64,000 nucleotides of DNA, taken from contig CAVYAE010000034.1 in assembly GCA_963766305.1 (NCBI GenBank), forward strand, positions 202,041 to 266,040, written 5' to 3'. The position numbers and the translations under genes were made by a program. The notes under the pieces are model-generated. The model saw nothing but the letters and a program-made list of their open reading frames with translations. It did not search any database and was not told the origin of the DNA. Shown one piece after another: positions 27,088 to 59,620 of the stretch (position 1 is its first letter; the number at the start of each line of letters is the position of its first letter). This DNA is from an uncultured Bacteroidota bacterium. Lineage in GTDB: Bacteria; Bacteroidota; Bacteroidia; Bacteroidales; JAAUTT01.

Positions 27088-27120
27088 TTTTAATTTTTAA
27101 TTTTATATTTTTGATTTAAA

Positions 27121-27248
27121 GTAGTAAAGTAGGTAAGTAAGATAGTAGGAAAGGAAAAAGACAACTCAACAACATTCACAAACAATCTGAAATACGTTAT
27201 CCGACATCCGTTATCACTAATTAGTCATTTTTCATCTGCACATTATTT
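27121..27248. repeat. 16 consecutive 8-nt words arranged in blocks of related octamers
   Basis: GTAGTAAA GTAGGTAA GTAAGATA GTAGGAAA GGAAAAAG / ACAACTCA ACAACATT CACAAACA / ..TACGTTAT CCGACATC CGTTATCA / ..TCATTTTT CATCTGCA CATTATTT. Confidence 0.6.
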
Positions 27249-29295: not shown

Positions 29296-30564
29296 ATGTC
29301 ACAAAAACCTTCAGGATTTAAATCAACGTTCCGGTCATTAAAATACAGGAATTTCAGGTTATTTTTCGGAGGTCAGGGTATCTCGCTTATTGGAACATGG
29401 ATACAGAGGATAGCCATGCCATGGTTGGTTTATGATATTACAAAATCTGTATTGTTACTGGGAGTAGTTGGTTTTATCGGTCAGGTCCCCACCTTTCTCC
29501 TGGCACCTTTTGCAGGAGTAATTACGGACAGGTTGAACCGTTTCCATATACTTGTCATGACCCAGGTACTGGCAATGCTTCAGGCAGGTATTCTGACCTG
29601 GCTGGTTTTAACCGGTTCTGTTCAGATTTGGCATATATTGGTTTTGAGTGGATTTCTCGGATGTATAAATGCATTTGATATCCCTTCCCGCCAGTCATTT
29701 ATAATTCAATTAGTTGATAAAAAGGAAGATTTAAGCAACGCCATAGCCCTTAATTCCTCAATGGTGAATATTGCCAGGCTTATAGGGCCATCTGTGGCGG
29801 GAATACTGATTTCTATAGCAGGAGAAGGTATATGTTTCCTTATAAATTCTCTTAGTTATATTTTTGTTTTAATGTCACTTTTCCTAATGAGAGTGACTCC
29901 AAAAGAAATCAAAAAATCGGGCAACCCAATATTAAAGGAATTCCGGGAAGGCTTTTCATATACCTTTGGGTTTGCACCTATACGTTACATAATATTATTG
30001 CTGGCATTGGTAAGTTTAATGGGTATGCCATATACAGTGCTGATGCCTGTCTTTGCTAAGGAAATTCTTCATGGCGGTTCCCATACTTTTGGCTTTTTAA
30101 TGGGGGCTACAGGCGTGGGTGCATTGACTGGCGCACTCTACCTGGCTTCAAGGAGAAGCACTGCCGGTCTGGAAAAGATCATCCCTTTAGCAGCAGGTAT
30201 ATTTGGTATCGGGCTTATTTGCTTTTCCTTTTCCAGGTTATTATTTCTTTCATTAATTTTACTGGTTATAACCGGTTTAGGTTTTATGCTACAGGGAGCT
30301 TCCAGCAACACTATGCTTCAGACTATAACAGATGACAACAAACGTGGACGTGTGATGAGCTTTTATACCATGGCCTTCATGGGTACTGCACCCTTTGGCA
30401 GTCTTATAGCAGGCAGTGTTGCCAAAGTATTCGGAGCTCCTTACACTTTGCTCATTGGAGGAATTTTCTGTGTGGCCGGGGCTATTATATTTAGTTATAA
30501 ACTGCCTGCCATAACATTAGCAATAAATAAAAAGAGGGTCGAAAAAGAAACCCTGGTTGTATAA
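29296..30564 (+). CDS. MFS transporter (12 TM)
   Basis: Hydrophobicity pattern; GVITDRLNRF loop motif typical of MFS between TM2 and TM3. Confidence 0.85.
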   Translation: MSQKPSGFKSTFRSLKYRNFRLFFGGQGISLIGTWIQRIAMPWLVYDITKSVLLLGVVGFIGQVPTFLLAPFAGVITDRLNRFHILVMTQVLAMLQAGILTWLVLTGSVQIWHILVLSGFLGCINAFDIPSRQSFIIQLVDKKEDLSNAIALNSSMVNIARLIGPSVAGILISIAGEGICFLINSLSYIFVLMSLFLMRVTPKEIKKSGNPILKEFREGFSYTFGFAPIRYIILLLALVSLMGMPYTVLMPVFAKEILHGGSHTFGFLMGATGVGALTGALYLASRRSTAGLEKIIPLAAGIFGIGLICFSFSRLLFLSLILLVITGLGFMLQGASSNTMLQTITDDNKRGRVMSFYTMAFMGTAPFGSLIAGSVAKVFGAPYTLLIGGIFCVAGAIIFSYKLPAITLAINKKRVEKETLVV

Positions 30565-30568
30565 CAAT

Positions 30569-32665
30569 TTATTTCACAACAGATCCATTGTCAGTTTTAC
30601 TTTTAGGCACCACGAAAATTAATTTCCCTGTAAGGTCCTCAGCAAGAAGTATCATGCCCTGAGATTCAATACCTTTAATCTTGCGTGGCTCAAGATTAAC
30701 GAGGACACATACCTGCATACCAGGTAGTTCCTCAGGAGTAAAATATTCGGATATGCCCGAAACAATGGTTCTTGTATCTATTCCGGTGTCAACTGTAAGT
30801 TTCATTAGTTTAGTAGTTTTGGCTACCTTTTCAGCTTCAAGGATTGTACCCGTGCGTATATCCATTGCTGAAAAATCATCAAAACTGACATTAGATTTTT
30901 GTGGAAGTGCTTTGGAATTTTTAATCCCGTTCTCTGTCTTTATCCTTGCCAGCCTTTGCAGTTGGATGTTTATTTCTTCATCTTCAATTTTCTCAAATAA
31001 TAACCCCGGAACGCCCAGTTTATGCGTAGCCTGCAATAAGTTTAGAGGATTACACCCGTTGTTCGTTGAATTGTCATGAATTTCTTCTGTTTTTATTTTC
31101 TCATCTGATCCGAATGAATTCCAATTTTGCTTTTCAGAATCCAGATTAATCATATGGCAAAGTTTTTTAGATGTAAAAGGCAAAAAAGGTTCACAAAGAA
31201 TAGTTATGGCAGTGGTAATTTGCAGACTTATGTTTATGACTGTTTTCACCCTTTCAGGGTTCGTTTTAATAAGCTTCCATGGCTCCTGGTCAGCTAAATA
31301 TTTGTTACCCAGTCTGGACAGGTTCATGAATTCTTTAAGTGCTTCTCTGAATTTAAATTCTTCCAAATTGTCTTCAATATTTCTTTTTATAATAATGATC
31401 TGTGATAAAATATCTTTATCAGCATCGGTCAATGGTCCTCTTTCGGGAACAAATCCCTCATAATAACTGGAAGTGAGAACAAGGGTTCTGTTCACAAAAT
31501 TGCCTAAAATAGCTACCAGCTCATTATTATTCCTTGCCTGAAAATCCTTCCAGGTGAAATCATTATCTTTTGTTTCCGGTGCGTTGGCACAAAGAGAATA
31601 TCGCAGTACATCTTCTTTTCCGGGAAAATCCTCAAGGTATTCATGCAGCCAGATAGCCCAGTTACGGGATGTGGAAATTTTATCTCCTTCAAGGTTAAGA
31701 AATTCATTGGCAGGTACATTGGCAGGAAGTATGTAGGTACCTTCGGCGTGCAGCATGGCGGGAAAAATTATACAATGAAATACAATGTTGTCCTTTCCAA
31801 TAAAATGCACCAGGCAGGTTTCCTTATCCTTCCAGTATTTCTCCCAGTCGCTTGTTAATTCCTTTGTTGCTGAAATATATCCTATTGGTGCGTCGAACCA
31901 TACATATAGTACTTTTCCGCTGGCGCCTTCTACCGGAACAGGTATGCCCCAGTCCAGGTCGCGGCTCACCGCACGGGCCTGCAGTCCCTGGTCGAGCCAT
32001 GATTTGCACTGACCATAAACATTTGTCTTCCAGTTTTTATTATCAACAAGTATCCAGTTGCGGAGAAATGTCTCGTATTTATCCAAAGGAAGATACCAAT
32101 GACTGGTACTTTTCAAAACAGGTTTATTACCACTTAACATCGAACGCGGGTTAATCAGATCAGTAGCATTGAGTGATGTCCCGCATTTTTCACACTGGTC
32201 CCCATATGCATTTTCATTGCCACAAATGGGACAGGTGCCTGTAATGTAGCGGTCTGCAAGGAACATCTGTTCCTGCTGGTCATAATACTGGTCATTGGAC
32301 TTTTCTATAAATTCACCCTTTTCGTATAAAGTCCTGAAAAAACCTGAAGCAGTCTCATAATGAACCGGTGAGGTTGTTCTTGAATATATATCGAAGGATA
32401 TTCCAAACTTTTCAAATGAAGTTTTTATAAGTTCATGGTATTTATCTACAATTTCCTGTGGCTTTACTCCTTCCTGCCTGGCTTTGATCGTTATAGGCAC
32501 TCCGTGTTCATCTGATCCTCCGATGAAAATAACATCCCTTTTTCTGAGACGAAGATAACGTACATAAATATCAGCAGGTACATATACTCCGGCCAGATGT
32601 CCTATATGAACGGGGCCATTGGCATATGGAAGTGCAGATGTAATTAAATATCGTTTGTAAGCCAT
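30569..32665 (-). CDS. metG: methionine--tRNA ligase with C-terminal tRNA-binding domain
   Basis: [14 protein letters not shown] (HIGH), KISTSRNW (KMSKS-type), Zn knuckle CPICG...CEKCG, C-terminal EMAP-like domain. Confidence 0.95.
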
Positions 32666-32736
32666 TTGTAATAATTATAAATAATGGTATGTTTGTTATA
32701 TAAAAACCAAATACCACAAATATAAGAGAAAATACA

Positions 32737-33642
32737 ATGACTTCACCCTTGCCTCTAAAAGAGGGGGATAAAATAGGCATCATTGCTCCATCCCGTAAAA
32801 TTAAACCGGAAGATTTATCTGAATTTACCAAATTTATTACCTCATGGGGTTATCAGGTTGTGTTTGGCAGAAATTTATTCAGTCAACACAACCAGTTTGG
32901 AGGAACAGATGAAGAAAGAGCTGACGATTTCAAACAAATGATTTCAAATAAGGAGATAAAGGCAGTTATTTGCGGACGGGGGGGCTATGGCACTATTCGT
33001 ATCCTGGATAAACTCGATGGATTAGCTATAAAGGACAATCCGAAATGGATTATCGGATTTAGTGATTTCACAGTAATGCATTCCTATTATAACAAAATTT
33101 CAGAATGTGAGTCCATACATTCTGATATGCCTGTAAACTTTACCAAAGAGAGTATGCTGAACCCTTCATGGCTAAAATTAAGAAGCCTGCTCCAGGGAAA
33201 TTTAGTTAAGTATGATATACCTGCACACCCGCTAAACCGTTCCGGAAATGCTCAAGGCATGCTTGTAGGAGGTAATTTATCCGTATTGTATAGTTTACGT
33301 GGCACTGATTTTGATTTGGATACGGAAGGCAGAATTTTATTTATTGAGGATCTTGATGAATATTTGTATCATATTGACCGTATGATGATGAATTTTAAAA
33401 TAGGTGGATTGTTAAAAAATCTGAGAGGACTTGTCGTAGGTTATTTTACAAACATGAAAGATAATAAAATACCTTTTGGGAAAGAGGCTTATGAGATTAT
33501 ATATGATGCCATTAAGGATTATTCATACCCTGTTGTTTTTAACTTCCCCGCAGGTCATGATAATCCAAATATGCCACTGGTATTGGGAAGAAATATTACT
33601 CTGGAGGTAAATGAAAACTCAGGTAAAATTATTTTTCTATAA
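32737..33642 (+). CDS. ldcA: LD-carboxypeptidase (peptidase S66)
   Basis: GDKIGIIAPS, RADDF, IICGRGGYG, GFSDFT (Ser nucleophile), FPAGH motifs. Confidence 0.85.
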   Translation: MTSPLPLKEGDKIGIIAPSRKIKPEDLSEFTKFITSWGYQVVFGRNLFSQHNQFGGTDEERADDFKQMISNKEIKAVICGRGGYGTIRILDKLDGLAIKDNPKWIIGFSDFTVMHSYYNKISECESIHSDMPVNFTKESMLNPSWLKLRSLLQGNLVKYDIPAHPLNRSGNAQGMLVGGNLSVLYSLRGTDFDLDTEGRILFIEDLDEYLYHIDRMMMNFKIGGLLKNLRGLVVGYFTNMKDNKIPFGKEAYEIIYDAIKDYSYPVVFNFPAGHDNPNMPLVLGRNITLEVNENSGKIIFL

Positions 33643-33706
33643 ATAAATTTTCAACTACTTCCAGGTATTATAGTTTTCAAATGACCCTTTACAAAACTTC
33701 TTCTAC

Positions 33707-33874
33707 CCTGCTATCATGTAATCCTGCATATCTGCTACCCTGCTTTCCCGGTGTCCTGCCTGTCTGCTAACCTGCTTTCCCGGTGTCCTGCCTGTCTGCT
33801 GTCCTGCTTTCCCATTATACTGCCTGTCTGCTTTCCCGGTGTCCTGCCTGTCTGCTAACCTGCTTTCCTGATAA
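33707..33874. repeat. 21 in-phase degenerate octamers (higher-order 32-bp unit TCTGCTNN CCTGCTTT CCCGGTGT CCTGCCTG), C-rich on + strand
   Basis: Parsed by hand; one unit lacks 8 nt at about 33827; lies between convergent genes. Confidence 0.85.
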
Positions 33875-33888
33875 ATTCCTTTAATACT

Positions 33889-34581
33889 TTAATTTAAAAG
33901 ACATTTATAGTCCCCGGGAATTTTATATACATTAAGGTTTACGTGCATATATTGAATATTTATTACTGATGTCCGCGATTTTTCATCCCCGGACATTGTG
34001 CGTTCAATAATTAAAATAGGTATATAACCCGAATTACCCGGGAATAGATTAAAGTAACCGCATAATTGGGAATAATCCTCAGTTTTACTCAGTAATTCCA
34101 TTACCCGGCTATAAAATGTAAAATTGGAATTACTGACCCATAAGGCAACTTCAGTATTAAAGTTGTTATTTTTGGCCTTCCATTGCTGGCACTTATAACC
34201 ATTAATTATTTTAATCACTCCTGTTTTAGTTATTATCACATCCTTATAAGGATATACGTGATTTTTAAAAATACTGGTGTATAATTTATGGGAAGGACTC
34301 ATGGCAATGATACTTCTTGCTGAAATATCAATAATTAAACTTTGAATTATTTGTTTGGATGTATTTTTTTCATCTATTCTTACAAGGTTGCTTTTAACTG
34401 TGTATGAGTAAAAAAAAGTGTCGTAAACTGTTTGTTTTACAAAGTTTATTGTGCCTTCGAAATTACCGGAAGAATTTTTTTGTGCCATTCCTGTATAATG
34501 CAACAGAACCAGGAAGAAGCTGATTATCCATATTATTTTTACCGTTGAATTGTAGTATTTTGGCTTTATATTATATGTCAT
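33889..34581 (-). CDS. hypothetical secreted protein
   Basis: Signal peptide (IWIISFFLVLLHYTGMAQ); coding-like composition; family not confidently recognised. Confidence 0.5.
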   Translation of the reverse strand: MTYNIKPKYYNSTVKIIWIISFFLVLLHYTGMAQKNSSGNFEGTINFVKQTVYDTFFYSYTVKSNLVRIDEKNTSKQIIQSLIIDISARSIIAMSPSHKLYTSIFKNHVYPYKDVIITKTGVIKIINGYKCQQWKAKNNNFNTEVALWVSNSNFTFYSRVMELLSKTEDYSQLCGYFNLFPGNSGYIPILIIERTMSGDEKSRTSVINIQYMHVNLNVYKIPGDYKCLLN

Positions 34582-34799
34582 CAGACTGTAAACAATTTTA
34601 ACTATATAATCATTTTTTATAAATTTACATTATAATAACATACCACTTATAAATAAAGTTTTTATAAATAAAGCCTGTAATGTTAAATTTTGTCTGTAAC
34701 ATTCTATGATTAAATCCACTTTTAATATCAAAAGAACATGTTTAAGTTTAAACACAAACACGAATGAACCGCAATTATGATCATACCAAATATTAAGGG

Positions 34800-35165
34800 A
34801 TGAAATCTCCAAAGGAAAAAGGTGACCTGGCAGAAGATATTGCTGTTAAGTATTTGGAAAATAAAGGGTATATAATTATTGCACGAAACTGGTATCATCA
34901 CCACCACGAACTGGATGTAATTGCCAGAAAAGAAAATATGCTTGTGGTAATTGAAATTAAAAGCCTTATAAACAACTATTTTAGAGAACCTTATAATGGC
35001 GTGACCGTTAAAAAACAACAAATGATTATATCAGCAGCTAATGCGTTTATTCTTAAAAATAATATAATTGAAGAAGTAAGATTTGATGTTATTTCAATAA
35101 CCTACAATTCGAATAAACCTGAAGTTTATCATCTGGAAAATGCATTTTATCCGCATGTAAAGTAA
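34800..35165 (+). CDS. yraN: YraN-family (UPF0102) endonuclease-like protein
   Basis: GDLAEDIAVKYLENKGYIIIARNW...ELDVIA...LVVIEIK pattern. Confidence 0.8.
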   Translation: MKSPKEKGDLAEDIAVKYLENKGYIIIARNWYHHHHELDVIARKENMLVVIEIKSLINNYFREPYNGVTVKKQQMIISAANAFILKNNIIEEVRFDVISITYNSNKPEVYHLENAFYPHVK

Positions 35166-35223
35166 ATAATTCAATTCAAATATGATATCTTTTAATTTAT
35201 AAACCCTATTAAATATTTTTAAA

Positions 35224-35820
35224 ATGAAGGAACAAACCGGATTTAACCTATTTATCAAAAAACTTGTCAATTACTTTTTACAGGGGTTGCTTTATGTATC
35301 TCCCCTAGGAATTACAATATATGTTATTATATATGTATTTAACCAGGTGGATGGCATTCTCCTGCCATTGATCAGAGATTACACCCACATTAAAATTCCA
35401 GGGCTGGGTGCAATTCTTATGGTTCTGTTGATTACCATTCTTGGTTATTTTGGACAATCAGTGTTAGGCCGTCCGTTTAAACTTGTTGTAGAACGAATCC
35501 TTCAAAGAGCTCCCATATTAAATATGGTTTATACTTCCATCAGGGATTTTATGGAAGCTTTCGTTGGCAAGGAGAAAAAGTTTAATCAGCCGGTTTTAAT
35601 AAAGATAGGGGCTACTTCCGAGGTTGAACGTATGGGATTCATAACCCAAAATGATCTTACAGAACTGTCCATAAAAGAAAAAGTAGCTGTTTACATACCG
35701 TTTGCATATGCTTTTTCCGGGGAATTATATATAGTTCCGTCCTCTTATGTGACCTTCGTTAATGTTTCTGCAGGTGAGTGGATGAAATTTATAATTTCAG
35801 GAGGAATTACAAAAGTATAA
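35224..35820 (+). CDS. DUF502-family membrane protein
   Basis: Two N-terminal TMs and the conserved IPGLG motif. Confidence 0.7.
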   Translation: MKEQTGFNLFIKKLVNYFLQGLLYVSPLGITIYVIIYVFNQVDGILLPLIRDYTHIKIPGLGAILMVLLITILGYFGQSVLGRPFKLVVERILQRAPILNMVYTSIRDFMEAFVGKEKKFNQPVLIKIGATSEVERMGFITQNDLTELSIKEKVAVYIPFAYAFSGELYIVPSSYVTFVNVSAGEWMKFIISGGITKV

Positions 35821-36245
35821 CACCCCAAGATTAGTGGTCGTTGGAAATGTTTGTGGACAAAATACCGATGTTGGTGTAATAATATTAGATATTTTAATTT
35901 TATCAGACAAATTTGAATCTATTACTCAGAATTTACGTATTTACATTAAATTCTAATATATAATAAAATGGAAACTTGTGAATATATAAATTTTGATTTC
36001 AAGTGTATCGGAGAAACAAGTATAATGAAACCTTTACTTAGAAGCCAGCAATATATTACCATTGAATTCGAACAGGCAAATTCAAGAGATATTTGTTTAT
36101 ATTGCCATGGTACTATAGACGATATGGCATTATTGATTCTTGCAATGCCAAATTAATACCTGCTACTTAGGATTTTCATAAGCTGAACAGGTTTTAGATG
36201 TTTTCTATGCCCTTTCCTGCTTTCATGAATCCTTCTATCCTAACA

Positions 36246-37085
36246 TTATATAACAAAATTGATAGGCTCTATGAATTGTTTTGAATCACGAATAACAATA
36301 GATGGTTTGTGATAAACTACTGAAAATGGCATGACACTTTCTGTAATCCATGAATTTCCTCCAACAACAGTATCGTGTCCGATAGTTGTTTGACCACCTA
36401 ATATGGTGCTTCCCGCATAAATTATTACATTATCCTCAATAGTAGGGTGCCTTTTAACGTTCGCAAGTTCCTTACCTACATATAAAGCACCTAAAGTAAC
36501 ACCCTGGTAAATTTTGACATTATTTCCAATAATACAGGTTTCCCCAATAACAATACCTGTTCCGTGATCTATAAAAAAATTGTCTCCAATTTCAGCACCG
36601 GGATGAATATCTATGCCTGTTTTAGTGTGTGCAAATTCGGAAATAACCCTTGGTAAAACAGGTATATTCATCTTATAAAGGATATGCGACAGCCGGTAGA
36701 TTGATAAAGCATAGTAACCAGGATAACATAATATTATCTCTTCGGGGCATTTTGCTGCCGGATCGAATTTAAGATATGCCTCCGCATCTTGTAATAGATT
36801 GTCATATAGTATGGAAACGGAAGTAAAAAATTCTTCGGCCAATACTTCAACCTGCTTGTCCAAAGCAGGCCGAAGTGGCACAACCAATGCTTTAAACTGA
36901 CTTTGTATATCTTCCCACTTTGCTTCAATATGTACTATGCTTGTACTTTTTTCTGCACGTATAGGAAAAAGAAAATTTATTATTTCATTTATAAAATGAT
37001 GCGTTTTTGCAAGTGAAGGCACCTCATTACAGTATGAAATAGTACGTGAGTGTATTTTTTTGGGGAAACCCTCTATTGAATCCAT
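36246..37085 (-). CDS. cysE: serine O-acetyltransferase (long N-terminal form)
   Basis: Hexapeptide repeats IDIHPGAEIGDNFFIDHGTGIVIGETCIIGNNVKIYQGVTLG. Confidence 0.85.
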   Translation of the reverse strand: MDSIEGFPKKIHSRTISYCNEVPSLAKTHHFINEIINFLFPIRAEKSTSIVHIEAKWEDIQSQFKALVVPLRPALDKQVEVLAEEFFTSVSILYDNLLQDAEAYLKFDPAAKCPEEIILCYPGYYALSIYRLSHILYKMNIPVLPRVISEFAHTKTGIDIHPGAEIGDNFFIDHGTGIVIGETCIIGNNVKIYQGVTLGALYVGKELANVKRHPTIEDNVIIYAGSTILGGQTTIGHDTVVGGNSWITESVMPFSVVYHKPSIVIRDSKQFIEPINFVI

Positions 37086-37101
37086 ATAATAATCAATTAA
37101 C

Positions 37102-38364
37102 TCAGCCTCTTATTGCTTTTATCCCCGGCAACTCCTTGCCTTCCATGTATTCCAGCATTGCTCCTCCTCCTGTTGATACATAGCTGACTTTGTCTGCCAG
37201 TTTGTTTTTATTTATAGCTGCTACAGAATCTCCACCGCCAATAAGGCTGAAAGCACCTTTGGTTGTGGCTCTGGCTATAGCCTGAGCAATTGCAGATGTC
37301 CCTGCAGCAAATTTATCCATTTCAAAAACTCCCATTGGACCGTTCCAAAGTATGGTTTTTGAATTTTCAATTACCTGGCTCATTATTTTTATGGATTCTT
37401 CTCCTATATCCAGGCCCATCCACCCATCAGGAGTTTCATCTATTTTGGATAGCCTCACATTGGCATCTGCTTTAAATTCATCCGCATTAACGGCATCTAC
37501 AGGCAGTACAACCCTGATTCCTTTTGATTTTGCCTTTTTGAGTATTTCAAGTGCAAGACCAAGCTGATCCTCTTCACACAAGGATTTACCAATTTTACCA
37601 CCCTGTGCCTTTATAAAGGTGTATGTCATTCCACCTCCGATAATGAGGTTATCCACCCTGTCCAGAAGATTTTCAATGATCAGTATCTTATCTGAAACTT
37701 TGGCACCTCCCATTATTGCGGTAAATGGTTTTTCCGCATTGAGAAGAATTTTATCCATAGCTTTTAATTCACTTTCAATGAGATAACCAAACATTCTGTC
37801 ATTTGGAAAGTATGCAGCGATCAATGCTGTTGATGCATGTGCACGGTGAGCGGTTCCAAATGCATCGTTGACATAACAGTCTGCATAACTTGCAAGCTGT
37901 TTGACAAAATTTTTCTGGCGATCTTTTACAAGGGCCTTTCCTGCTTTTTTTTCTTCATCAGTAGCATTTTCTGCCAGGTGGTATGGTTTTCCTTCCTCTT
38001 CTTCATAAAACCTGAGGTTTTCCAATAAAACAACATCCCCGGGTTTCATCGCAGAAGTTATCTTTTTTGCTTCTTCCCCGGCACAGTCATTGACAAATAT
38101 TACCTTTCTTCCTATAACTTTTTCAATTGCGGGTATAACATGTTTTAAAGAGTATTTGTCCTGAACCTTTCCATCCGGGCGGCCAAGATGTGACATAAGT
38201 ATTACTGAACCACCGTCACTTAGTATTTTATTAATTGTTGGCAGAGCTCCCCTGATACGGGTATCGTCTGTTACTTCAAAAGTTTGTTTGTTGAGCGGTA
38301 CATTAAAATCCACACGAACAATGGCTCTTTTGTTTTTAAAATTATAATTATCAATAGTTTGCAT
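37102..38364 (-). CDS. pgk: phosphoglycerate kinase
   Basis: [21 protein letters not shown] motifs. Confidence 0.95.
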
Positions 38365-47624: not shown

Positions 47625-47719
47625 CTCCTGCCTTCCTAATATGTTTATCCTTAGATAGGTTAATTTGTTTATTCTGAATTCATTAAAGACTATAATTGAA
47701 TTCTTAAATTCAAAGAATA

Positions 47720-50700
47720 TTAAAGTTTCAGAATTTTTCTTATCACCATACCTTTATCCGGGGTATATATTTTAATGAAATAAATACCCGCAGAAAAATT
47801 GCCCATATCAATTGCGGTTACACCATCAGTTAAATCTGACGAGTAAACTTCTTCTCCGTCAGCTTTATATATCAATATTTCAGTATTATCGGGAGTAAAT
47901 GGAAGATACACATTCAATAATTTAGTAACCGGTACCGGATATAATTTAACATCCTGATTATCTATAGTTAAGACATTTGTTTTTGGATTGGCCTCCTGTA
48001 TTACAATTATTGTTTGCGGATCTGCACCGGTGGCTGAAACAACCAGGGTATCGGTTCTTGGCTGTCCAAGAGGATTGGATGATGCTGTTAAAATAATATC
48101 AGCAGTATCGGAACCATAATTTACATCAGGGGTGACCCAGTTTTGCTTTTCATTTATGGTCCAGCTGACATTTGACCATATAGTAAATGTTGCCTTACTA
48201 TTTGAAATATCAGGTACATTTAATGTATTAGCTGACACAGATAAAGTGGCAGCTAATACTTTCATAACAATGGAATTGCTTATAACAGTATCGTTGTCAA
48301 AAATTGCCCTGCATGAAATACTATCTCCGTTTAGAGGAACATAACTTAAAATTGTGCTGTCTAAACCAACTTTTTTACCATTCACCAACCATTGCAATAT
48401 TACAGGCTGACCTGGTGAAACTTTTTCTGCTTTAATAGTAATTGATGATCCCGGATAAACAGTGTCAGAATTTGCAGTAATCTGAACAATAGGTAAAATA
48501 TTAAATTTGTTCCATGGAGGAGTTGCTTTATATAGGCTTATCGAATTATATGGCACATATAAGTTTTTAATAGCATCCTCGTAGAAAGCAGAACTATCAA
48601 TATTTCCTGTCAAGGGCGTAGGGTTTAGATCAACAATTGAATTAAATTCTGAACTAAAAAAAGCATAATCTCCAATATAAGTAATCGAAGAAGGAATTGT
48701 TAATGATCCTGTAAATTCACAACCATAAAAAGCATCTTGGTCTATACTTGTAACCGAAGAGGGAATAATTAATGGCCCTGTTAAACCTGGACAATCAAAA
48801 AATGCCCCACCCCCAATATGAGTAACTGAAGAAGGAATGGTTAAGGTACCTGTAAATCCAGAATTTGCAAAAGTCTCAGGTTCAATATAAGTAATCGAAG
48901 AAGGAATGGTTAAGGAACCTGTAAATCCCCAACAATCTGTAAACGCCCCATCTCCAATATAAGTAACTGAAGAAGGGATAATTAATGATCCTGTTAATCC
49001 GGAACAATTTGAAAAAGCATAATCTCCAATTGAATTAACATTTGTTGGGTAGGTTATGGATGTCAAGGATGTTTTGGGTATTTCTGTATGTTGATTGTAA
49101 AACGCATATTGAGGAATTGCATTTGCAGGATAAGTATCCATATTTGCATCCTGAGTCCCATATTTCCCTGTATATGCAGTAATTGTAGCACCTTTTAAAT
49201 TAATAACAGTTAAAGATGGCATACTGTCGCGCATTGTTTTAAAGTCGCGTGCATCAATAGTTCCCGTAACCGTCAGATTGCTGGTTGTACTTAAACAGGA
49301 GTGTATTAATGTATTCAATGTTCCAGGAGTAGCAACCGTAATACTCATGTTATTACTACATGTAAAACCAGAAAAATTTATCACAATTGCATTGCTAGGA
49401 ACAACATATCCGTTAATAGTCACATTACAAGTAATTATATCGCCATTTTCAGGCTTATAACCGATTAAGGAGTCTCCTGTACCTGTAGGGTTACCGTTTA
49501 CCTGCCATTGTAATGGCAAAGATTTACCAATTAAACCTGTATCAGCTGAAAAAGTAACGAAATTGCCCGTATGCAGCGTATCTGTACTACAGTAAATTTG
49601 AATAACAGGTAAAATATTAATACTACTCCACCAGGGTAATGCTTTATATGCCATGACCGAGCCATATGGCACATATAAGTTTGGGATATTACCAGCGAAT
49701 AAAAAGACACTTTCGCCCATAGCACTTTCACTCAGGGGCACCGGATTTAATGCAATAATTGATCTTAAGTTATTACAAAAAGAAAAAGCTCTGCTCCCTA
49801 TAGACGTAACTGAAGGAGGTATGGTTAAAGTACCTGTGAATCCGTAACATCCATTAAAGGCATAATCCCCTATAGAAGTAACAGAAGAAGGAATGGATAA
49901 TGGTCCTGTAAATCGACCACAAGCCATAAAAGCATAATTTCCAATATTAGTAACTGAAGATGGTATGTTTAATAATCCTGTAAAACTACAACCATTAAAA
50001 GCCCAACTTCCAATAATAGAAACCGAAGAACCAATTGTCAAGGTACCTGTAAAACCACAACCGCCAAAAGCATCATTGCCAATATAAGTAACTGAAGAAC
50101 CAATGTATAGGGAATCTTTAAATCCGGAACATCCAATAAAACTATAATCTCCAAGATAAGTGATAGTAGAAGGAATAGTTAATGAACCTGTTAATCCCGA
50201 GCAACCGGAAAATGCATAATCTCCAACAGATTCAACATTGGAAGGAATAGAATATGTCCCTGTCTTTCCTTGAGGACATTCAATAATTGTTGTTTTATTT
50301 TTATTAAATATCACTCCATTGATACTACTATAAAAAGGATTAGACTCTTCAACAATAAAATCAGTTAATCCTGGTGATGTAAAAGCTTCATTTCCAATGT
50401 ATGTAACCGAAGACGGGATGGTTAAAGAGCCTGTAAATCCACAACCACGAAAAGCTTCGTCTCCAATATAAGTAACTGAAGTACCTATAGTTAAAGAATC
50501 TTTACATCCGGAACATCCATTAAAACTATAACCTCCAATATGAGTAACAGAAGAAGGAATGGTTAATGAACCTGTTAATCCCGAGCAACCGGAAAATGCA
50601 AACTCACCAATAGAATCAATCGAAGAAGAAAGGTTTAAGGAACCGGTTAAACCATTCAAACCAGCAAAAGCATAATTTCCAATGAATGAAATATTAACAG

Positions 50701-59270: not shown

Positions 59271-59620
59271 AATGTCCGGAAATAAAGCCGGATGCAAGGC
59301 TTGCGCAGTCAGAAAAAGCGGAGTTTACTGAGGTAAATGAGCATTTTTATGACAAGCATAACACAGCAGCTGGTGTTTATATGATAATGTCCGGAAATAA
59401 AGCCGGATGCAAGGCTTGCGCAGTCAGAAAAAGCGGAGTTTACTGAGGTAAATGAGCATTTTTATGACAAGCATAACACAGCAGCTGGTGTTTATATGAT
59501 AATGTCCGGAAATAAAGCCGGATGCAAGGCTTGCGCAGTCAGAAAAAGCGGAGTTTACTGAGGTAAATGAGCATTTTTATGACAAGCATAACACAGCAGC
59601 TGGCTTTATTTCCGGACATT
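59271..59620. repeat. three head-to-tail copies of a 115-bp unit; the last copy closes a 120-nt imperfect palindrome with 19-bp perfect terminal inverted repeats
   Basis: Units start at 59271, 59386, 59501 and are identical over the first 100 nt. AATGTCCGGAAATAAAGCC (59501-59519) is the reverse complement of GGCTTTATTTCCGGACATT (59602-59620). Confidence 0.9.

Follow-up and report, generated by a model that had tools for sequence, protein, structure and literature searches.

Long simple-sequence repeats with units of 5–11 nt have been described in prokaryotes (Mrazek, Guo and Shah 2007). As this work is summarised in PMC4679880 and PMC11868660, heptamers are the commonest units, and polymerase slippage is the proposed cause. 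Heptamer arrays of GGGAATC in Xanthomonas and of GGGGA(C/T)T in Nostoc were reported by Rehm et al. (2015). They are intergenic, lie nearer to the preceding ORF and have no strand preference; their length and sequence vary between close relatives, and some of them form inverted pairs (PMC4692102). The cyanobacterial STRR heptamers are cited in the same work (PMC4692102). Direct repeats of TAACTGA are known from Beggiatoaceae, Cyanobacteria and five Bacteroidetes (MacGregor 2015, PMC4679880). The origin and function of the STRR, GGGAATC and TAACTGA families have been unexplained since their first description.

Here, we describe an array of octamers located between two convergent genes of an uncultured Bacteroidales bacterium. 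The source genome (G000) is metagenome-assembled and comprises 4.55 Mb with 35% G+C; the stretch of it that includes the array, referred to below as the window, is 64,000 nt long. The array has the features of long simple-sequence repeats, namely, a short unit repeated head to tail, a length beyond chance, an intergenic position, copy-number variation and recurrence of the unit family.

Structure and Periodicity of the Array

The array occupies positions 33,707–33,874 of the + strand and consists of 21 in-phase octamers (168 bp) with the consensus CCTGCTTT. This one-phase parse had been proposed in an earlier reading made from the sequence only, and the letters at these positions were exactly as first parsed. 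The array has a G+C content of 54%, against 35% for the genome, and 71% of its bases are pyrimidines. Position 2 of the octamer is C in 20 of the 21 units and position 4 is G in the same number, while positions 7–8 are variable. The tract had also been called C-rich and G-poor on the + strand. The first part of this description stands, with 35% C. The second does not, except relative to C, as G (18%) is at the genome average because nearly every octamer carries one G at position 4. The sole truly G-poor part is the best 78-nt window, with 11.5% G.

The 8- and 32-nt periodicity suggested earlier was confirmed by the autocorrelation of the 168 bases against 1000 shuffles. Peaks were obtained at all multiples of 8 (identity 0.53–0.75, z 5–12), with the maximum at lag 32 (75% identity, z 12); lags 8, 16 and 24 gave 53–59% identity (z 6.5–8.5), and lags other than multiples of 8 did not exceed chance. 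Tandem Repeats Finder (TRF) reported a period of 32 at 33,722–33,868 (4.8 copies, score 175), and its other rows overlapping the array had sub-periods of 16 and 24. The 24-mer CCTGCTTTCCCGGTGTCCTGCCTG occurs three times with no more than one mismatch and was absent from 100 shuffles.

The array can thus be written as about five (five and a half) blocks of the 32-bp unit CCTGCTTT CCCGGTGT CCTGCCTG TCTGCTAA. Block A (33,707–33,738, + strand) is a degenerate edge copy with 72% identity to the 32-bp block consensus. Blocks B and C (33,739–33,802, + strand) are two full 32-bp units, CCTGCTTT CCCGGTGT CCTGCCTG TCTGCTAA, with 100% and 94% identity, respectively. Blocks D and E (33,803–33,858, + strand), with 87% and 100% identity, are joined via the fused octamer TCTGCTTT. 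Block F (33,859–33,874, + strand), CCTGCTTT CCTGATAA, is a truncated degenerate edge copy (75%). The fused octamer is an in-register 8-bp deletion giving a 24-bp unit, and this deletion between D and E accounts for the period-24 rows of TRF and for an autocorrelation peak at lag 56. The inner blocks are therefore 87–100% like the block consensus and the edge blocks 72–75%. Arrays that turn over by slippage or unequal exchange typically combine a homogeneous core with degenerate edges and have indels that respect the register. Successive units of the present array follow one another head to tail without spacers. A CRISPR array was ruled out, since there are no unique spacers between the repeats.

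Gene Context

The array lies downstream of the LD-carboxypeptidase gene ldcA (Peptidase_S66; 32,737–33,642, + strand) and, judging the transcribed strand from gene orientation alone, its C-rich strand would fall in the 3′ untranslated RNA of this gene. The convergent gene (33,889–34,581, − strand) encodes a DUF4412 protein, and its read-through RNA would carry the G-rich complement. Most of the gap between the two genes had been said to be filled by the array, and this holds: the stops are at 33,642 and 33,889, and the array makes up 168 bp (68%) of the 246-bp gap. The DUF4412 stop codon is 14 nt from the array. A unique spacer of 64 nt (33,643–33,706) separates the array from the ldcA stop and contains neither a hairpin terminator nor a TAnnTTTG motif.

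The array contains no plausible ORF, as had been stated before. It should be noted that the minus-strand frame past the DUF4412 stop is open for 61 codons, from 33,888 to about 33,706, through the entire array; T is scarce on the minus strand, and stop codons are for this reason rare. A coding or read-through interpretation of this frame was rejected, as neither the 32-bp period nor the 64-bp difference between alleles described below is a multiple of 3.

The tract was likewise correctly described as not being a canonical hairpin terminator, with no hairpin-plus-U site found in 33,643–33,888 on either strand. Hairpin-plus-U terminators follow just 8.4% of the G000 genes with a 3′ gap of at least 80 nt; either the terminators of this genome are off the usual rule, or factor-dependent termination is widespread. 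Scans of the gap revealed no sigma-70 promoter and, on either strand, no Bacteroidetes TAnnTTTG promoter motif. The RNA of the array folds no better than shuffled sequences (z 0.05 for the + strand and −0.68 for the − strand), and the centroid structure of the + strand RNA is nearly unpaired. An Rfam scan of positions 30,000–38,000 with E up to 1 gave nothing relevant, apart from one chance match to STnc150. No regulator or replication gene is found beside the array.

Variation Between Strains

An exact-protein look-up of the ldcA product led to four other contigs. One ENA contig (L029) encodes an identical ldcA protein and spans the array locus. Over 4,802 flanking bases, this contig shows 27 substitutions relative to the window and is free of indels (99.4% identity), and the order of genes, metG–ldcA–DUF4412–yraN, is retained. 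The array of L029 comprises 13 octamers instead of 21, being 64 bp, or two 32-bp blocks, shorter, although both copy numbers come from short-read metagenome assemblies, which are prone to repeat mis-counts, and L029 is the one full-length alternative allele. The length polymorphism between strains, proposed earlier as a check, was thus observed. The shorter allele (104 bp) is of like composition, has several unit substitutions and includes the same kind of fused 24-bp unit.

In two Logan contigs (L030 and L032), the flanks match the window exactly but the array units vary, with CCTGTTTT replacing CCTGCTTT and GCCGCTAT replacing TCTGCTAA. The array changes faster than its surroundings, since the number and sequence of units differ while the flanks are nearly identical. 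Contigs L030, L031 and L032 end within the array, and L106 does so from the opposite side. In L031 (Logan ERR11523660, positions 1–1929), gene calling split the methionyl-tRNA synthetase gene beside ldcA in two (194 and 470 aa), and this flank is out of register with the window; the indel or frameshift responsible may be real or may stem from the assembly. The DUF4412 and YraN proteins of the window were not on record in exact-protein look-ups.

Related Arrays in the Source Genome

A whole-genome TRF analysis of G000 (score ≥ 50, length ≥ 40 bp) yielded 287 arrays, about 190 of them intergenic. The dominant periods were 7 (44 arrays) and 8 (22 arrays), with the multiples 14, 16, 21 and 24 also present. 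By a lag-identity scan, 30 arrays with period 7 and 12 with period 8 were counted, and periods of 4–6 and 9–11 were almost lacking. Relative to spacer length, tandem, divergent and convergent gaps had similar densities of 0.31, 0.29 and 0.27 arrays per kb, respectively. The unit vocabulary is small: 58 units account for the 126 arrays of period 7 or 8, and 19 loci have ATTGATT. Most arrays of this class are AT-rich, and the array at 33,707–33,874 is unusually G+C-rich for the class. The orientation of the arrays showed no bias with respect to local GC skew (26/59) or gene strand (29/59).

Related tracts elsewhere in the genome, for which a search had been suggested, do exist. A word-cluster search collected the octamer family CCTRCTNT at about 20 intergenic loci, where it forms mini-arrays in both orientations and in every kind of gap. 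One of them is a 193-bp array at G000:C71:58709–58901, and a short array of the same family is present in the window itself (27,118–27,153, − strand; AAAGTAGG on the + strand and CCTACTTT on the − strand), upstream of a minus-strand gene. The CCTGC(T)TTCC words at 36,210–36,225 and 47,627–47,640, which had been named as similar tracts, turned out to be single short words and not arrays. The exact 32-bp unit is unique in the genome and was not found in the public collections of genome and metagenome contigs searched; a search of the same two kinds of contigs with the 24-mer CCTGCTTTCCCGGTGTCCTGCCTG gave no match. No flanking sequence is shared among the approximately 20 CCTRCTNT loci. A mobile-element origin was rejected, as the flanks are unshared and the gene order around ldcA is kept in the second assembly; the ldcA–DUF4412 junction is also kept in the sister species G006.

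Some of the CCTRCTNT mini-arrays occur in inverted pairs and are potential hairpins, for example, at G000:C79:6650–6723 and G000:C37:6141–6224. At G000:C33:86640–86890, a short CCTGCTAT-type array is enclosed by a near-perfect inverted repeat (about 55 bp), and the whole resembles a MITE or a very long hairpin. Other tandem repeats were also observed in the window. At positions 59,271–59,603, a unit of 115 bp is perfectly repeated in tandem (2.9 copies, 100% identity, TRF score 666). Repeats with a period of 72 (and 141) bp and 70–74% identity are found at 48,658–49,030 and 49,796–49,992, and these probably encode a protein with 24-residue repeats, as a period of 72 is a multiple of 3.

Arrays in Related Species

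The nearest species is G006, with an ldcA 71% identical to that of G000. Three consecutive CCTRCTNT units were found at five places in G000 and two in G006, and in none of the 11 other genus members or the 150 genomes searched across the order. Four consecutive copies of ATTGATT gave 51 matches in G000 and 10 in G006, with none in the rest of the genus. The orthologous ldcA–DUF4412 gap of G006 contains a short array of a different unit (CTTGGTTC type), which is not C-rich, and the other relatives have no array there.

The density of arrays with 5–11-bp units differs strongly within the genus. A 400-kb sample of G006 (G006:C18:1–400000) contained 72 such arrays, or 180 per Mb, about one per 5.5 kb, compared with 19 per Mb in G000 and 23, 17, 2.5 and 0 per Mb in four other genus members. 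Arrays were present in 15 of 48 convergent gaps of this sample and in 6 of 47 divergent ones. The sample also included 11 adjacent pairs of arrays with reverse-complementary units (e.g., 238255–238361, 189247–189347 and 102388–102472), one example of the pattern being (AAGATTT)n followed, after 19 bp, by (AAATCTT)n. Such inverted pairs are predicted to be long hairpins or cruciforms with repetitive arms; the CCTRCTNT pairs of G000 are smaller versions of them.

The canonical units common to G000 and the G006 sample numbered 13, whereas 4.2 would be expected given the composition of the spacers, and none of 500 trials gave more than 9. Four arrays of G006 were mapped by their flanks onto G000, and the orthologous gap contained an array in one case. 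The same unit families are found at non-orthologous sites in the two genomes. The array at 33,707–33,874 is a member of a class of intergenic simple-sequence arrays (7–9-bp units) that extends across the lineage.

In the one orthologous gap with an array in both genomes (G000:C4:86490–87170, ATTGATT), the array of G000 has grown into a composite: runs of ATTGATT alternate with about three copies, two of them near-identical, of a segment of about 130 bp that contains a palindrome (ACCTGATA...TATCAGGT).

Origin of the Array and Alternative Explanations

We consider that the tract is probably a non-coding hypervariable minisatellite with two tiers, made by slipped-strand mispairing or unequal recombination. 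A slippage-generated spacer was the third of the readings offered from the sequence, and it is the one supported by the in-register change in length, the degenerate edges with a homogeneous core and the 7–8-bp arrays throughout the genome. The following pathway can be suggested. A short array of CCTGCTNT octamers may have arisen by slipped-strand mispairing, after which its units would have diverged into a block of four octamers. Slippage or unequal recombination would then have added copies of this 32-bp block and trimmed others, without ever leaving the 8-bp register. The origin and turnover of the array need no sequence-specific function. As it stands, the array would space the convergent ldcA and DUF4412 genes about 250 bp apart, and it would provide an unstructured C-rich stretch in the ldcA 3′ untranslated RNA, on which Rho could load as a side effect.

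Two observations do not fit the minisatellite reading easily. The restricted unit vocabulary shared with G006 at non-orthologous sites is not obviously predicted by pure random slippage, and the array, unusually G+C-rich for its class, has a very high rank for rut-like composition. The sharing of unit families between non-orthologous sites leaves room for a sequence-directed process or selection. A stronger form of this proposal is that the arrays are not passive debris: a sequence-directed process in G000 and G006 would seed and maintain a small vocabulary of 7–9-bp units (for example, ATTGATT, AAATCTT, ATAAACNN and CCTRCTNT) at new sites, either through a DNA-binding or repair protein dedicated to this task or through templated insertion, and the C-rich members would be co-opted as Rho loading pads replacing the scarce hairpins. 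We regard this combined proposal as distinctly unlikely. As for the replacement of hairpins, there was no signal: a hairpin occurs in 5.7% of the 3′ gaps with an array, against the 8.4% given above (p 0.39).

It was also suggested from the sequence that the tract looks like a Rho-utilisation (rut) site. If it were a selected rut site, its C-rich RNA would load Rho and end ldcA transcription before an antisense run into DUF4412; we find this doubtful. The composition does agree with such a role. The best 78-nt window in the 250 nt after ldcA has 36% C, 11.5% G and 22 YC, and among 3,532 gene 3′ regions the locus ranks 4 by YC and 30 by C minus G, although this high rank is partly circular, since the tract was picked as C-rich. 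The + strand RNA, with its fold z of 0.05 and nearly unpaired centroid, is unstructured, the gap has no intrinsic terminator, and in the 13-octamer allele this composition persists over 104 bp. G000 has a Rho gene, recognised by a Rho_RNA_bind match (122 bits, G000:C31:171820–172041) within a 596-aa open frame, and the YC of each 8-nt unit could suit the spacing of about 9–10 nt between Rho subunits (PMC12360218). The independent tests, however, did not favour it. The sense strand is C-rich in 42 and G-rich in 46 arrays of same-strand gaps in G000 (p 0.75), the corresponding numbers in G006 being 29 and 23. The missing hairpin carries little weight, because by the same rule only 8.4% of 3′ gaps of at least 80 nt in the genome have one. 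The sister species has its non-C-rich array in the ldcA–DUF4412 gap, and another relative has a sequence there that is hairpin-like as judged by eye. Furthermore, the rules for rut sites derive from E. coli, and the Rho of Bacteroides thetaiotaomicron, from the same phylum as the present bacterium, has a large disordered insertion (PMC12360218). Thus, the rut-like look of the RNA stands as regards composition, structure and the presence of Rho, and a rut role is possible for this particular C-rich array, whereas strand bias, hairpin frequency and the G006 locus do not point to one.

The remaining explanations appear less plausible still. The octamers could be bound in a row by a protein, acting on DNA or RNA, with specificity for a CCTGC/CCTRCT core; the array would then serve as a roadblock or insulator between the convergent genes or as a nucleoid-organising site. 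The core (C2, G4, CCT.CT) is far better kept than positions 7–8, both in the array and at the roughly 20 family loci; the CCTRCTNT family is common to two species and absent from the 11 other genus members and 150 order genomes; and four 8-bp units make 32 bp, which is near three helical turns. An array of the iteron or operator type would combine a conserved core and fixed spacing with a conserved site and copy number and with an adjoining origin or gene for its binding protein; here, the core and the spacing are conserved, but the copy number is not constant, the site is not conserved in G006 and no regulator or replication gene adjoins it. Moreover, the family members occur in all kinds of gaps and in both orientations, and many unrelated unit families behave alike in the same genomes, so that a binding array seems very unlikely. 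Even less can be said for an action through non-B structure, with the G-rich strand forming a G-quadruplex or the C-rich strand an i-motif, which we judge extremely improbable. GG and GGG runs are regularly spaced on the minus strand, two G2+N1-7 x4 motifs are present there, and quadruplex-forming intergenic heptamer arrays provide a precedent (PMC4692102). Yet only two-tetrad motifs are possible, as there are no four G3 tracts with short loops and the six G3+ runs of the minus strand are too far apart for a quadruplex motif, and most arrays of the class in G000 are AT-rich and unable to form such structures. Finally, it is scarcely credible that faulty assembly produced the array or the difference in length between the alleles. 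All sources are short-read metagenome assemblies, and the Logan contigs break within the array; nevertheless, two independent assemblies span it with identical junctions to the unique flanks, and its first 39–95 bp are reproduced in partial contigs from three further runs. From these spanning and partial contigs, the existence of the array is safe, and an error would be confined to its exact copy number.

Significance

The array extends the described class of repeats by its second level of periodicity and by its unusually G+C-rich unit. The locus, situated between two housekeeping genes, could serve for the typing of strains of this uncultured Bacteroidales species, and the array probably makes contigs break when short reads are assembled. 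Of wider interest is that G000 and G006 are both rich in 7–9-bp arrays, with a restricted vocabulary shared between them at non-orthologous sites. An array-rich lineage with array-poor congeners is a good place to seek the cause of such repeats. If it were true that the C-rich members are Rho entry sites, a mutational process would be linked to the evolution of terminators in a phylum with an atypical Rho.

Comparison with Known Systems

The RNA of the array resembles E. coli rut sites, such as lambda tR1, in being a C-rich, relatively G-poor, unstructured and untranslated stretch of at least 80 nt after a stop codon, with many YC (PMC12360218). Natural rut sites, however, are not tandem repeats and are defined by function, and the class to which the array belongs is not oriented with transcription.

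The TAACTGA repeats are a further parallel, as they too are intergenic direct repeats of a short unit, patchy in distribution, found in Bacteroidetes, sometimes arranged in long arrays and unexplained in function (PMC4679880). In Maribeggiatoa, most sets of TAACTGA closely precede start codons and keep one orientation, so that a role in translation is suggested (PMC4679880). In contrast, the array at 33,707–33,874 is located between two stop codons, and the CCTRCTNT family follows no orientation rule.

The heptamers of Xanthomonas and Nostoc share with the present arrays the occurrence of one unit family at many intergenic loci, often near the end of the upstream ORF, on both strands, with variable length and sequence and some inverted pairs. 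Their units contain runs of three to four G and form quadruplexes in vitro (PMC4692102), whereas the CCTGCTTT unit allows weak two-tetrad motifs only. In addition, the Xanthomonas arrays lie mostly between the same genes in both species (PMC4692102), while three of the four arrays tested here were not at orthologous sites.

The long simple-sequence repeats, as they are summarised in the papers cited at the outset, are also a match: head-to-tail units of 7–8 nt, a length beyond chance, a mostly intergenic position and an abundance limited to scattered lineages apply to both. Relative to these summaries, the present array differs in its second tier: four diverged octamers make up each 32-bp block, and the tract is so a minisatellite built on a microsatellite.
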